Made by a program: the position numbers and the translations under genes. From positions 13,745 through 77,744 of IMG/VR virus record IMGVR_UViG_3300012164_000002: 64,000 nucleotides of DNA; one strand, written 5' to 3'. Of this stretch, positions 4,426-54,796 are shown in pieces. This DNA comes from a virus. Positions within the stretch are counted from its first letter, which is position 1. Each line of letters opens with the position of its first letter. The notes under the pieces are model-generated. The model saw only the letters and a program-made list of their open reading frames with translations. It did no database searches and had not been told where the DNA came from.

Positions 4426-4471
4426 GCGAGATCCTTCCACTGAGTTATACGGTCGGCTAGGATAACGGGCA

Positions 4472-48922: not shown

Positions 48923-49774
48923 CTACTCCTTCCAGCTTTCCGGGAACAAGTTCGGCGCGTGATCTAGACACACGCGCTTCCACTTCTTAGCGAGCCGTTG
49001 GTACTCGAGGTCGGCGAACTCGTTGGCGCGCTCCTTGAACATCTTCTGGAGCGCGATGGGGTTCGACGTCCAGATAAACGACGTCTCACACGAGTGGGAG
49101 AGATACGGCGAGGCGCTCTCGAAGATGCGCTTCCGATCCATCCCCTTCGGCGGCGCGCTGTAAGCTTCCTCGAAGTGCGCCGTCCGCCGGCGGATGTAAT
49201 CGAGATATTCCCGGTAGTTTCGCCCCATCGCGGACTTGAAGTAGCTGAGCTCGTCGGCGTTATCGATGATCGCCGGGTGCGCGATGTAGCACCCCGCGTG
49301 CTCGACGTACCTGGTCGACTCTTGCGACGGCGATCCTTCCTCGGTGCGATCGGCGCCGACGTAGTGCCGAATGATCTCGTGCGACACGCGCCGCGACACG
49401 CCGCCGATGAAGAACGTCATCTTCGCGTGGTACATGATGCTCGCGTGCGGGATATCGCCGACTTGCGTTTGCGCGATGTACTCGCGGTTCGTCTTCCGCC
49501 CCGCTTTGAGCCCGAAGCTGTTGTAACACTTGCGTCCGGCGAGCTCGACCAGGAGCTCGTTCGGGCTGAGGACTCTGTCAGCCTCGCGCATGCTGTGCGG
49601 GAAGAGCGTCTTCCAACGGCCGCTGTCCTCGATGTTGAACTCGTCCGGTAGGCAGTCCGGCGCGCGATCACGCACCCACTCCGCCATCTGGTTGAGCCCA
49701 TCGGGGATGAGCATCATCTGTGCAATGCACGTTACGGTCGGTTCACTGGTTAGAATTCGCGCTTGTCGTTCCAC
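48923..49774 (-). CDS. thyX: flavin-dependent thymidylate synthase
   Basis: ELAGRKCY, HASIMYH, GVSRRVSHEIIRH..SQESTRYV. Confidence 0.85.
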   Translation of the reverse strand: MERQARILTSEPTVTCIAQMMLIPDGLNQMAEWVRDRAPDCLPDEFNIEDSGRWKTLFPHSMREADRVLSPNELLVELAGRKCYNSFGLKAGRKTNREYIAQTQVGDIPHASIMYHAKMTFFIGGVSRRVSHEIIRHYVGADRTEEGSPSQESTRYVEHAGCYIAHPAIIDNADELSYFKSAMGRNYREYLDYIRRRTAHFEEAYSAPPKGMDRKRIFESASPYLSHSCETSFIWTSNPIALQKMFKERANEFADLEYQRLAKKWKRVCLDHAPNLFPESWKE

Positions 49775-51354: not shown

Positions 51355-52089
51355 TTACTCTCCTTGTGCGGCCCACACGCAGACCGCTGTTGTGAGGCCA
51401 CATTCTAGATCTTTGAGCGTGCCGTCGTTCTCGATCACGAGGTCGAAGCGATCGTTCGGTATCTCGCCCTGTTCCGTCTCGCTCCGATGAGCGCCGGCGG
51501 CGCCGCTGAGCCCGGCGTCGGGACGGATGACGCGAATCGTGCGCGCGCCGACGACGTCGAGCCCTAGGAGCTCGTTCTCGAAGCGCACGTCGGGAATGAC
51601 GACGTCCGTTTTCCAGTTCAAGTCGCCGGGGCGCCAGTCGTGGCTGAGGCCGCCCATCGCTGAATAGTGATAGCCGCCCTCCTGGCTGAGCTTCGTCGCG
51701 ATAGTTAACGCGTACTCGACCCACGTGTCCTCGCGGCACACGCGGCCCCACTCGCTCCCTAGCTGTTGGAGCGCGAACCGGGGCGTGAGGTAACACTGAT
51801 CCCGATCTGCACTCTCGCCGCGCTTGCACTTGGCCCCGCAGCATTGGCACGTGTGCCAGCCATCGTTGTAGTCCGGCTGCCACATGTGCTTGCGCGGAAG
51901 CCGCGTGTCGGGCGCGTTCCGTGCCGCGCTCGGGCCCCATAGCTGGTCGAACGAGAAGCCGTAGACGTCCATGCAGATGCGCTTCATCGGATCGGCGAAG
52001 CTCACCTTCACGAAGTTGTGATCGCGCACGAGAAAGTCCGCGCACGTGTCTTTGCCTGAACCCGCTAGCCCCGAGATCCCGATTATCAT
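51355..52089 (-). CDS. deoxynucleoside monophosphate kinase (phage type)
   Basis: IIGISGLAGSGKDT, SFADPMK, LQQLGSEWGR, IPDVRFENE, NDGTL. Confidence 0.88.
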   Translation of the reverse strand: MIIGISGLAGSGKDTCADFLVRDHNFVKVSFADPMKRICMDVYGFSFDQLWGPSAARNAPDTRLPRKHMWQPDYNDGWHTCQCCGAKCKRGESADRDQCYLTPRFALQQLGSEWGRVCREDTWVEYALTIATKLSQEGGYHYSAMGGLSHDWRPGDLNWKTDVVIPDVRFENELLGLDVVGARTIRVIRPDAGLSGAAGAHRSETEQGEIPNDRFDLVIENDGTLKDLECGLTTAVCVWAAQGE

Positions 52090-52098
52090 GACGTTCTC

Positions 52099-53148
52099 CT
52101 ATCCAAAGTCCGACCACCTTTGCCCGACCTTCCGATCGATCGGCATTCGAAAGCTCCGCGCGCCGTCTTCAATCTTCAACGACGATCCCCATCCGTTCGC
52201 CGGAATGATGACGGGCTCTTCCCACGTCTTGTCGACGAGCTCGCAAACCTGGTCGACGTGCCGGTCAGGCACTTCCATGATGGCCGCGTCGTGCACTTGC
52301 TTGACGACGGCGGCGCCGCGCGGGAGGGCGTGCCAGATCTTCGGCAAGCGCACGTTCATCAAGCTCGCGATCCCGCCTTGGATCGGCCGGTTCGCAACGT
52401 CCGGAAAACCGGCGTGCCACCCCAACCACGAGATGCGACCTGAAAGGGCGCATCTCAAGTAGCCGTGCTTGTCGACCCAGCGCTTGTTGCCCTCGACGTA
52501 CTTGAAGTAGCCGCTGCACGTGTCGCGCACCATCTCCTGGAGCTGCACGACGTCGCGCATCTCGACGGGGAGGCCTTTCGAGCGCACGAAAGCGAACAGC
52601 GTCCCGGCCTCGGCGTAGTAGATGCATCCGAAGATGCAATTCTTCTCGACGTCGCGGAAGGGTTTGCCGGCGCCCTTCGGATCGCGGCCGATGAGCTCGG
52701 CGTCGGCGGGGAAGAGCAGCTTCGCCATCGCCGTGTGCACGTCGCCGGATTCGCACGCCTTGATGAACGTCTCGTCGCCGGAAAGGTACGCGGCGAATCG
52801 GAGCTCTGCTTGGGAGAGGTCGAAGTAGACGAGCTTGTAGCCCGGCGGCGCCACGTAGAGCTCACGCATGCGCGTCTCGAGGACGATGAACTTCTCTTTC
52901 GTCTGCGGATCGAGCAGGTACTCCGCCCGCGGGCAGCTTTGGATGCGCGACGAGTACCGACCGCTCGCCGTACCGTAAGATCGCCAGTTGAAGTGCGTGC
53001 GCGCGACGCGAACGACCGGGCCTAGAGGTGCGATTGCCTCGGCCGCCGCCGTGGCCCCGATCGCTTTCTCACGCTTCGCTCTGGGCTTCCGCACGGGCGT
53101 CCGCCGCCGGGCGCGCTTGACCGCCCGCCGGGCCGCCGCGCTAGACAT
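52099..53148 (-). CDS. family A DNA polymerase, catalytic (fingers/palm) subunit
   Basis: GTASGRYSS, DLSQAELR (motif A), KNCIFGCIY (motif B), QVHDA (motif C). Confidence 0.9.
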   Translation of the reverse strand: MSSAAARRAVKRARRRTPVRKPRAKREKAIGATAAAEAIAPLGPVVRVARTHFNWRSYGTASGRYSSRIQSCPRAEYLLDPQTKEKFIVLETRMRELYVAPPGYKLVYFDLSQAELRFAAYLSGDETFIKACESGDVHTAMAKLLFPADAELIGRDPKGAGKPFRDVEKNCIFGCIYYAEAGTLFAFVRSKGLPVEMRDVVQLQEMVRDTCSGYFKYVEGNKRWVDKHGYLRCALSGRISWLGWHAGFPDVANRPIQGGIASLMNVRLPKIWHALPRGAAVVKQVHDAAIMEVPDRHVDQVCELVDKTWEEPVIIPANGWGSSLKIEDGARSFRMPIDRKVGQRWSDFG

Positions 53149-54796
53149 CGAGCACCTGCGAGTCGATGTAGGTGCCCTTGATCTTCACGACGCCGCGCCA
53201 CTGGAGGAGCATGTCGGCGAACCGGCCTGCTCTCGTCGGGCTCTCCTTGAGGCGCTCGAGAGTCTTCTGGCTAGTCGAGGGCAATCCCGTATCGGTGGGG
53301 TCCGCCGCCGCCAAGGGGGCGCGAAGCGTCGTGAAGAGCGCGCGGCGCACTTCGGCCAATTGCATTGGATGGAAGTTCGGCCGCCGGAGGAGAACGCGCA
53401 TCTTCTCGAGCAGCCTCGCTTCCTTCTCCACCATCGCCGCACGGAGCACATCGCGCCGGTCGAGATCCACGCCGGAGCCTCGAATGATCATGTCGCGACA
53501 GAGGCGTGCGTTTTCCTTGTCGACCTCGTAGATCATCCGCTCGCTCTCGAGATCGGCTTGCATCCTGAGCCACACCAGCGCTTGGATGCGTGCGTCGGCC
53601 GCGTTGTAGAGGCAGAGCTCGGCGCCGCTGAGCTTTTCAGGCGGGAGGCCCTTTTCTGAAGCCCCGTCTTTGCCGCGCTTGAACGTGACCTTCCACGGGC
53701 CCGCGTCGACGAAGCAGCTTGCGACGTGCGAAAGCCTTTGCGGCATGTGGCTCGCGAACGTGTGGTGCGCGATGAGCGTGTCCTCGAGCTTGTCTTCCAT
53801 CTCGTCGAACGGGATCCCCGCGCGATCCATGCTGATCTGGTCGAAGTTGTAGCCGTTGTGCATTCCAACGATGCGCACGCGCTCGTGGAAGCGTCGGATG
53901 ATCGGGACGTGCACTTTCGGCCGCCAGGGCCAGATAACGACCGTGTGCTTGGCGTCGGAGATGCCGATGCACAGGATTCTGTTCCGGAGCGGGTTCGCAC
54001 CGTCCTGGCCGCCGGGAGTGCTCGGGCCCGTCTCGATGTCCTCGCTCACGACAGGCTTCAACTTGGCGAGCTCGTGGATGACGTCGTTCTTCTTCGTGAC
54101 GACGACGTAGGGCCCGTTGTCGACGAGCTTCTTGTGCGTGAGCTCTCCGCGTAGCCACCGAGCGATGCGGTCGAGGTCGATCTTCAACACCGGGAGCCAC
54201 GTGTCGGATCGCAAGATGAACGCCGGGTGGAGCGTCGGAAGCACCGTGCGCCCCGCAAGCCGACTTCGCCCGTCGACGATCTGCGCCTTCAACCAAAGCT
54301 CTTTCCACTTCGGCGCGGCCCGCTCTTTCGCCTTCTTCGCCGCTTTCCACGCCGGTATCGCGTCGATCTCGCGCGCCGTCCAAACGAAGCCGCGCGCGTG
54401 CATGATCGAGCGCACTCCGAGTACGGAGAGCGTAGACGTCTTGCCTAGCGTGACGATCGGGATCGACGGATCGAACTTCGCGAGATCTTTCAGGAGTCGA
54501 GGCGCGCAGCAGACTGCGGCCTCTTCGTTTTCCCGGTCGATGTTGCTCCTACAAAGCGCTGCATTCTGGAGGGCGGCCTCGCGGATATCTATGTCGACCT
54601 CTCGGCAAAGCCCGCGGAGGAAGGAACCGGTTTGGCCGACGAAGGGGATGCCTTGGATCTCCTCTTTGCGGCCGGGCGCTTCGCCGACGAACACTAGCTT
54701 CGTTGGGAGGCTCGAGGCTTTCGGCGGAACGACGGTGTTACCGCGCAACGGGCAGAGATCGCAGCGCGCGCCGAACTTCCGCGGATCGTAGCCCAT
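53141..54796 (-). CDS. UDG family-4-like domain plus 3'-5' exonuclease and thumb (N-terminal half of PolA)
   Basis: VGEAPG..E...PFVG, LHPAFILR; EDIET, HNGYNFD, YNAADA. Confidence 0.88.
   Translation of the reverse strand: MGYDPRKFGARCDLCPLRGNTVVPPKASSLPTKLVFVGEAPGRKEEIQGIPFVGQTGSFLRGLCREVDIDIREAALQNAALCRSNIDRENEEAAVCCAPRLLKDLAKFDPSIPIVTLGKTSTLSVLGVRSIMHARGFVWTAREIDAIPAWKAAKKAKERAAPKWKELWLKAQIVDGRSRLAGRTVLPTLHPAFILRSDTWLPVLKIDLDRIARWLRGELTHKKLVDNGPYVVVTKKNDVIHELAKLKPVVSEDIETGPSTPGGQDGANPLRNRILCIGISDAKHTVVIWPWRPKVHVPIIRRFHERVRIVGMHNGYNFDQISMDRAGIPFDEMEDKLEDTLIAHHTFASHMPQRLSHVASCFVDAGPWKVTFKRGKDGASEKGLPPEKLSGAELCLYNAADARIQALVWLRMQADLESERMIYEVDKENARLCRDMIIRGSGVDLDRRDVLRAAMVEKEARLLEKMRVLLRRPNFHPMQLAEVRRALFTTLRAPLAAADPTDTGLPSTSQKTLERLKESPTRAGRFADMLLQWRGVVKIKGTYIDSQVLDV

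Follow-up and report, generated by a model that had tools for sequence, protein, structure and literature searches.

A family A DNA polymerase divided between thumb and palm into two overlapping genes in an uncultured virus

By homology, two overlapping genes of an uncultured virus encode a family A DNA polymerase (PolA) in two pieces, the cut falling between the thumb and the palm inside the polymerase domain. Textbooks present family A polymerases as single-chain enzymes, and many laboratory polymerases are based on them. The two genes were found on the minus strand of a 64,000-nucleotide stretch of DNA (the window), part of an 86-kb genome that is complete (direct terminal repeats, CheckV 100%). 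Judged from sequence, they most likely specify a functional enzyme of two chains, as opposed to being a broken gene or an assembly artifact, since the cut has been kept under selection in several related viruses. The arrangement probably arose by gene fission, in which a 3n+1 insertion would have produced a translationally coupled two-subunit family A polymerase. The N-terminal chain, gene 1, and its junction with gene 2 are laid out as follows.

53141 to 54796, minus strand: gene 1, 551 amino acids, with a UDG domain, a 3'-5' exonuclease and the N-terminal polymerase part including the thumb; C terminus VLDV, then TAG
54200 to 54766, minus strand: family-4 UDG-like domain (gene 1 residues 11 to 199), with GEAPG (38 to 42) and HPAF (190 to 193)
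53594 to 54040, minus strand: 3'-5' exonuclease region, with Exo I DIE (253 to 255), Exo II NGYNFD (314 to 319) and Exo III YNAAD (397 to 401)
53144 to 53596, minus strand: polymerase domain, first part with the thumb (gene 1 residues 401 to 551), the last helix stopping at the gene 1 stop
53141 to 53148, minus strand: stop/start overlap ATGTCTAG, with the gene 2 ATG at 53148-53146 and the gene 1 TAG at 53143-53141

Gene 1 matched the Pfam UDG family (PF03167) at 5.8e-17, NCBIfam Pol I over positions 326 to 604, and PDB family-4 UDGs at 8e-15; matches of its UDG domain to TIGR00758 and NF040953 were both under the cut-offs of those models. The catalytic motifs of the UDG are kept: GEAPG and HPAF are in place, and four Cys match the Fe-S cysteines of Thermotoga UDG in the alignment. 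The exonuclease motif columns are invariant across 69 relatives (D266, E268, D331, Y409, and D413 in the numbering of L001, an unsplit relative), and gene 1 residues 401 to 546 align to Klentaq chain positions 117 to 256. With a family-4 UDG, Exo I to III and PolA together, the enzyme is, by its motifs, a UDG-PolA. The original prediction had given gene 1 the same UDG-like, exonuclease and thumb content, which the Pfam and NCBIfam matches, the Klentaq alignment and the Exo motifs bear out.

The C-terminal chain holds the rest of the polymerase domain, preceded by a leader.

52099 to 53148, minus strand: gene 2, 349 amino acids, palm and fingers, bearing motifs A, B and C; ATG at 53148
53002 to 53148, minus strand: gene 2 leader (residues 1 to 49), Arg/Lys-rich and predicted to be disordered, replacing the 10-residue linker of unsplit relatives
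52798 to 52827, minus strand: motif A (gene 2 residues 108 to 117), with the catalytic D110 aligned to Taq D610 and invariant in the relatives compared
52612 to 52656, minus strand: motif B/O-helix (residues 165 to 179), with R165, K169, F173 and Y177; it ends in IYY, not YG
52282 to 52299, minus strand: motif C (residues 284 to 289), with H286 and D287

The gene 2 product belongs to family A: its motifs A, B and C align to those of Taq, and it has a palm-fingers fold. It matched Pfam PF00476 (DNA_pol_A) over positions 105 to 358 (2.2e-22; 80 bits versus a cut-off of 34.3), and its residues 47 to 310 align to Klentaq chain positions 264 to 516 (E 2.6e-15). Modeled alone with AlphaFold2, it gave a confident fold (mean pLDDT 86.8) except for residues 1 to 51, where pLDDT was <50. 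K169, F173 and Y177 correspond to Taq K663, F667 and Y671 and to E. coli K758, F762 and Y766, and the next residue is Tyr, not Gly. The IYY ending and the Phe equivalent to E. coli F762 had been singled out beforehand; the Taq alignment agrees on both, but the ending is a family-wide trait and not peculiar to the window. Across the seven split chain-2 proteins, no catalytic column varies.

That the two genes are adjoining pieces of one enzyme follows from the consecutive profile positions that they cover. On Pfam DNA_pol_A the thumb lies on gene 1 (positions 28 to 95) and the remainder on gene 2, so that the domain is not contiguous in one chain; on PHROG 17, gene 1 covers positions 481 to 950 and gene 2 positions 960 to 1239. 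These adjacent halves, encoded by minus-strand ORFs that overlap by 8 nt (ATGTCTAG), confirm the predicted division of PolA into two overlapping genes. Relative to gene 1, the reading frame of gene 2 is +1.

The break comes where the last thumb helix ends, at about Taq residues 553 to 556 (Pfam DNA_pol_A positions 95/105). A structural model of L001 places a helix at residues 534 to 557, a coil at 558 to 570 and a strand at 571 to 574, and the cut site corresponds to the coil. Against Bst and Klenow polymerases the model reaches a target TM-score of ~0.8, and it has a normal Klenow-like fold. Its linker is well ordered (pLDDT ~92), which indicates that the cut does not fall in a flexible loop. 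The palm would need to come from two chains.

Most relatives are unsplit and a minority are split, which bears out only half of the outcome named beforehand as refuting the split, namely that every relative be undivided. In about 45 close relatives (at least 70% identity), the polymerase is a single gene of ~865 amino acids with a 10-residue linker at the cut point; the two break points are 10 to 12 residues apart in unsplit relatives, within the distance of about 10 to 15 residues expected from intact PolA. At least five further lineages, from independent assemblies, keep the split at this point. Two split relatives, L068 and L078, are ~90-kb contigs from other samples with 72 to 76% protein identity and the same ATGTCTAA junction, with TAA instead of TAG and a shorter leader than in the window. 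Four more split pairs were identified (P0180/P0003, P0197/P0002, P0211/P0005, and P0264/P0007), in which partners were matched by their equal-sized longest contig, taken as the same contig, and junctions are known from the called proteins. The best relatives among cultured phages showed only ~25% identity, and a search of genome contigs for relatives found none and gave no clue to the host.

The 3n+1 insertion and the ATGTCTAR overlap are present in the window, L068 and L078 and absent from the unsplit relatives. Compared with the 117-nt unsplit segment, the split one is 115 nt longer in the window and 43 nt longer in L068/L078, each increment being 3n+1. The window's leader, which corresponds to the 115-nt insertion, has 14 Arg/Lys among residues 1 to 49 and a pI of ~12. 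The basic leader noted in the original prediction is thus real in the window, but it is not a conserved module, since length and content vary among split forms: the other leaders are 15 to 34 residues long, with a small or absent basic bias. No second copy of the insert was found in its own genome, and no match in cultured phages. An alternative start for gene 2 in the window is possible at an in-frame GTG (codon 19).

An error of assembly or sequencing, i.e., an indel in a single record, might be suspected from the GC-rich, repetitive and error-prone sequence at 53060-53140. However, the same two proteins, identical, occur on two to three contigs, and the junction recurs in independent assemblies. 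Furthermore, one indel cannot restore a single ORF, as the segment is 115 nt longer than, and unrelated to, the unsplit linker. Such an error is therefore extremely improbable.

The original prediction left the choice between a two-subunit polymerase and a programmed frameshift. In the latter case, a +1 (or -2) shift near the gene 1 stop would fuse both frames into a full-length polymerase, and the frame relation would allow it: the gene 2 frame is +1 and open for 14 codons before the ATG, with the same relation in L068/L078. However, the last 15 codons (...CTC GAT GTC TAG) contain no slippery heptamer or known +1 site, and the predicted RNA fold equals that of shuffled sequences (z = -0.01). 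Gene 1 ends in VLDV, VLDD or one of two longer, unrelated tails among the split forms, a variation incompatible with a conserved shift site. By comparison, the junction ATG is always kept in split relatives, although the ends of gene 1 and the starts of gene 2 vary in both sequence and length, and the stop alternates between TAG and TAA. We consider frameshifting very unlikely, and of the two predicted options it is the two-subunit polymerase that the kept split, the selection on both halves and the lack of another detected polymerase favor. A recoded stop was also rejected: readthrough of the TAG would add 24 residues before a TGA, and L068 has a TAA followed by more stops.

We also considered whether a group I intron or a split intein might rejoin the halves. 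Large insertions resembling inteins or endonuclease genes occur elsewhere in the polymerase gene of relatives, and polymerase genes of HMU phages contain introns according to references cited in PMC10580990. In the window, however, the insert is just 115 nt, and a search at E up to 1 gave no Rfam match. Gene 1 runs only one residue past the homologous sequence, leaving no N-intein; a His-Asn followed by Cys, Ser or Thr is absent from the end of the leader, and Pfam found no intein or endonuclease domain. In line with the original reading that no intein, intron or endonuclease is visible, there is hardly any likelihood that splicing restores the chain.

A different concern is that the gene is a recently broken pseudogene, with replication carried out by a host polymerase or by one chain alone. 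Most relatives being unsplit would fit this, as would the clearly damaged polymerase genes of some of them: frame changes are numerous in L088 and L090, and the first palm strand is missing from the P0212/P0008 pair. In the window and L068, by contrast, both halves have stayed intact over ~25% protein divergence at dN/dS of 0.15 to 0.20 (gene 1, 0.20; gene 2, 0.145; dS 1.0 to 1.45), values that are rough because dS is near saturation. Purifying selection acts on both halves. The catalytic residues are invariant, the split occurs in at least five lineages, and the complete genome, searched for a second polymerase, gave no other PolA and no PolB match. Taken together, a pseudogene is unlikely.

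We propose instead that an ancestral single gene of ~865 amino acids (UDG, exonuclease and PolA) was interrupted by a 3n+1 insertion at about Taq 553 to 556, in the short linker that leads from the last helix of the thumb to the first strand of the palm. The insertion would have put a stop into the old frame, one codon past the conserved VLD, and also created a +1-frame ATG overlapping the new stop. Chain 1 would then comprise the UDG, exonuclease and thumb, and chain 2 the palm and fingers with all catalytic residues. Ribosomes that terminate on gene 1 most likely reinitiate at the ATG, which lies 5 nt upstream, and such translational coupling would yield roughly equal amounts of both chains. 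We found no promoter or terminator between the two genes, and an AGGTG lies 4 nt upstream of the gene 2 ATG; the gene after gene 2 has a normal AGGAG, indicating that Shine-Dalgarno initiation is in use here. Immediately ahead of the start of gene 2, the AGGTG forms part of a hairpin, which is weaker in L068; this hairpin was discounted as evidence, its sequence encoding conserved residues that are also present in unsplit relatives. The two chains would join noncovalently into the same fold as the one-chain relatives, presumably with polymerase activity, and the basic leader would be a loose, fast-evolving N-terminal tail of chain 2.

The fission was probably recurrent, or else the junction was moved by recombination. 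In a tree of chain 2, split forms fell in three places and a single clade was rejected (AU p = 0.0036), whereas in a concatenated tree the three split loci formed one clade, mainly from gene 1 residues 211 to 337. A single origin is not claimed, as the two trees conflict. The fused P0263 shares a 90% cluster with the split P0006, and a lineage ~43% identical (P0268 with P0259, the latter on ~20 contigs) is seemingly cut at the same linker, as known from the called proteins. More distant relatives frequently have a second cut site, inside the exonuclease domain. It is conceivable, if rather doubtful, that the thumb-palm linker is a fission hot spot at which the gene switches repeatedly between one- and two-chain forms, both of them working. 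The alternative to a hot spot is a single ancestral junction spread by recombination.

Two-subunit polymerases cut inside the catalytic domain are known from family B, in which gp43 of some T4-related phages is divided by a mobile element; the present case differs in polymerase family, and in gp43 the inserted mobile gene is present. For family A, exonuclease/polymerase splits and one other split inside the polymerase domain have already been published, and the thumb/palm cut is a new variant. A 2023 survey reported exonuclease/polymerase fission as the first for family A. In S-SBP1-like, T7-like cyanophages, exonuclease and polymerase are two adjacent overlapping genes (Czernecki et al. 2023, NAR, PMC10201439). 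Close relatives are unsplit, the arrangement was read as fission and not as programmed frameshifting, and AlphaFold2 predicts that the chains reassemble (PMC10201439). The present case resembles it in having a frameshift-made stop and a start just upstream, only in the interrupted forms (PMC10201439). However, the S-SBP1-like cut is at the exonuclease/polymerase boundary, in a T7-like subfamily and by a 1-nt change (PMC10201439), whereas the window's cut lies away from that boundary, between thumb and palm inside the polymerase domain, in a UDG-PolA lineage of uncultured viruses and with an insertion of 43 to 115 nt.

Closer in position are the MEP401-type OM43 phages, whose PolA is, as here, cut within Pfam DNA_pol_A and kept so across many related genomes (PMC10580990). 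Their cut is between Pfam positions 132 and 154, just before motif A, a 77-aa ORF separates the halves, and an intron was suspected (PMC10580990); in the window, it is at 95/105, with an 8-nt overlap and no ORF in between. LUZ24-like phages also have a two-gene PolA ("DNA polymerase part I" and "part II"), but part I (171 aa) is confined to the exonuclease, part II (546 aa) holds the entire polymerase domain, and the two lie ~2 kb and several genes apart (PMC3890496). Xp10 was rejected as a precedent for an HNH-split polymerase, as it has one 794-aa polymerase gene and encodes its exonuclease subunit separately.

Fusions of UDG to PolA have been described in the N4-like cluster 17 and in SPO1, SP-10 and SP-15 (PMC10201439), in agreement with the earlier mention of SPO1-like phages. 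All of these are single chains (PMC10201439), whereas the window encodes two. The UDG catalytic motifs are retained here, as in the non-N4 UDG-PolAs, and lost in the N4-like members (PMC10201439); judged by these motifs, membership in cluster 17 is disfavored.

A hot spot, if true, would provide a natural family A catalytic domain built from two polypeptides and a permissive split site for engineering. A naturally selected cut of this kind, with one- and two-chain forms in close relatives, would allow palm assembly from two chains to be compared, would let one ask whether separate chains alter processivity or the balance of proofreading and synthesis, and would offer a natural site at which engineered polymerases could be split. 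For annotation, split genes will be missed or mis-sized in PolA counts and phylogenies drawn from viral metagenomes.

The record that holds the window is 85,617 bp long, carries direct terminal repeats and is rated complete. The family A DNA polymerase is distributed over two overlapping genes, with further nucleotide-metabolism genes beyond them:

53141..54796, minus strand, gene 1 (551 aa), with the C-terminus VLDV followed by TAG
52099..53148, minus strand, gene 2 (349 aa), whose ATG start overlaps the gene 1 stop in ATGTCTAG
51355-52089, minus strand, dNMP kinase gene (PHROG 139, 3e-39), directly following gene 2
48950-49561, minus strand, ThyX-type thymidylate synthase, 2.5 kb farther along

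Gene 2 is shifted to the +1 frame with respect to gene 1, has AGGTG 4 nt upstream of its ATG, and encodes a leader of 49 residues ahead of THFNW.

Profile matches and alignments show the two predicted products to be neighbouring pieces of one enzyme. In Pfam, gene 1 matched the UDG family and positions 28-95 of DNA_pol_A, and gene 2 matched positions 105-358. Gene 1 covered positions 481-950 of PHROG 17 (DNA polymerase) and gene 2 covered positions 960-1239, and Klentaq chain positions 117-256 and 264-516 aligned to gene 1 residues 401-546 and gene 2 residues 47-310, respectively. Since these ranges adjoin, the cut was placed at about Taq residues 553-556, directly past the thumb. In the predicted structure of the unsplit relative L001 (867 aa, pLDDT 91.9), which matches the Bst and Klenow polymerases, a long helix (534-557) ends at VL and is followed by the linker as a coil (558-570) and by a strand (571-574). 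In this predicted layout, the cut coincides precisely with the C-terminus of the last thumb helix.

Gene 1 contains the Exo I-III motifs and the features of a family-4 UDG (GEAPG, HPAF, and four Cys). A solved structure, PDB 9qhs_A (1142 aa, "putative DNA-directed DNA polymerase I"), matched the UDG part (E 0.0014); possibly the first UDG-PolA structure to be solved, it could also be useful as a template. Gene 2 carries motif A (D110), motif C (H286, D287), and a motif B with R165, K169, F173, and Y177, followed by Tyr where Gly is expected. The catalytic columns were all invariant among seven split chain-2 (palm and fingers) proteins, and the comparison of the window with the split relative L068 gave gene 1 a dN/dS of 0.20 and gene 2 one of 0.145 (dS 1.0-1.45). 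AlphaFold2 modeling of chain 2 alone gave a mean pLDDT of 86.8, with values of <50 only at residues 1-51. Apart from this polymerase, the genome of the virus gave neither a PolA nor a PolB match. Given a UDG with its catalytic motifs kept, the dNMP kinase, and ThyX, one may ask if the virus deals with uracil or with a modified base.

Among viral and metagenome contigs, scans returned about 60 related loci. Nearly all of the close ones (72-83% identity) had both parts in one frame without a stop, with a 10-residue Lys-rich linker bridging VLD and THFNW, and protein searches likewise gave about 45 clusters at ≥70% identity that were single proteins of ~862-875 aa. A minority of relatives were split at the same place. 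Two of these come from other samples, on contigs of 91.9 kb (L068) and 89.9 kb (L078); from their junction, ...CTCGATGTCTAA..., gene 1 ends in VLDV and gene 2 starts at an overlapping ATG as in the window, with a leader of 25 residues compared to 49. The DNA between the QWRG codons and NWRSYG, which spans 117 nt in unsplit genes, is 160 nt long in L068 and L078 and 232 nt long in the window, so the inserts amount to 43 and 115 nt, each 3n+1, and both begin directly after CTCGA. Four further split pairs (P0180/P0003, P0197/P0002, P0211/P0005, and P0264/P0007, from Logan, JGI, and ENA assemblies) were matched up by the equal size of the longest contig carrying each short gene 1-like or gene 2-like protein. 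Their gene 1 ends in VLDV, VLDD, or VLD plus 6-9 unrelated residues, and their chain-2 leaders have 15-34 residues.

For some relatives, damage or poor assembly is the probable explanation: the pair P0212/P0008 (JGI contig, 12.6 kb), in which gene 1 ends in ILDKR and the second ORF is without the first palm strand; L015, whose gene 1 changes frame once (4452-4465); and L088 and L090 (two ERZ1370068 contigs), where the reading frame changes about eight times along the gene.

In a concatenated tree, the window, L068, and L078 were joined (SH-aLRT 98) and nested in a clade of unsplit genes. Sliding identity traced this signal to gene 1 residues 211-337 (window 53730-54165), where the window was 70-78% identical to L068 compared to 55-65% for all other relatives; outside this segment it was nearest to the unsplit L001, L002, and L005. 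These divided affinities indicate a mosaic polymerase that arose by recombination within the gene. In a tree of chain 2 only, the eight split forms occupied three separate positions, and the test rejected their union in one clade (AU p = 0.0036). All split forms and no unsplit form have a short Pro/Gly-rich stretch just ahead of THFNW; this common feature argues for a single junction that may have been passed around through recombination. Repeated change between the split and fused states is hinted at by two other observations. The fused P0263 (891 aa, on a contig of 124 kb) shares a 90% cluster with the split P0006; after VLDV, which it keeps, the reading frame stays open through a linker that no other relative resembles, and the protein may represent either a re-fusion or a state before fission. 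In a lineage only ~43% identical, P0268 ends shortly past the conserved TYL, and P0259, found on about 20 contigs, begins ~10 residues before the conserved HPNW.

As for expression of the pair, no slippery motif was found at the junction, the RNA fold around it was no better than that of shuffled sequence, no Rfam family was matched, and no promoter-like or terminator-like site lay between the genes on the coding strand. The split forms differ in junction sequence and geometry, with the start codon always retained, and AGGAG precedes the ATG of the downstream dNMP kinase gene, as AGGTG does that of gene 2. From these observations, we favor termination-reinitiation coupling that would yield two separate chains that assemble.

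UDG-PolA fusions are known from N4-like phages, SPO1, SP-10, and SP-15 (Czernecki et al. 2023, PMC10201439). In S-SBP1-like cyanophages, exonuclease and polymerase are separated via a frameshift that leaves stop and start overlapping, which the authors read as gene fission and as the first split seen in PolAs (PMC10201439). The window's split has this genetic mechanism in common. It belongs to a different subfamily, has no gene between the halves, and is cut within the catalytic domain. LUZ24-like phages have the exonuclease domain as part I and the polymerase domain as part II, with 2 kb between them (PMC3890496), and in MEP401-type OM43 phages the polymerase is cut within the Pfam domain (PMC10580990); by our placement, the MEP401 cut falls between profile positions 132 and 154, and a 77-aa ORF separates the two halves. 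Of the published PolA splits compared, none has its cut at the position seen in the window.

Distant relatives (35-50% identity) showed a second, different fission site (L028:4230-4450 and L029, identical in sequence); it lies within the exonuclease domain, with Exo II on one side and the conserved DTLxAHH helix on the other, and again has a frame change and an overlap of stop and start. Proteins tied to this site were P0029, P0067, P0241, P0267, P0272, P0275, P0276, P0288, and P0293-P0298. This two-gene form seems common, because at least 15 protein clusters of ~500-527 aa begin there. At the same site, L021 (4090-4350) has a ~60-aa ORF of no recognised family between the polymerase pieces, resembling the MEP401 arrangement. 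Large insertions of 0.4-1.05 kb, which look like inteins or endonuclease genes, were present in relatives at three other sites: in motif A, at residues 398-408 of gene 1, and at residues 251-253 of gene 2. Such insertions were also noted in proteins P0033, P0035, P0037, and P0038 (1100-1220 aa). The loci with large insertions were:

L026:4061-5001
L063:2488-3542
L064:2440-3494
L087:4633-5066
L089:4005-5020
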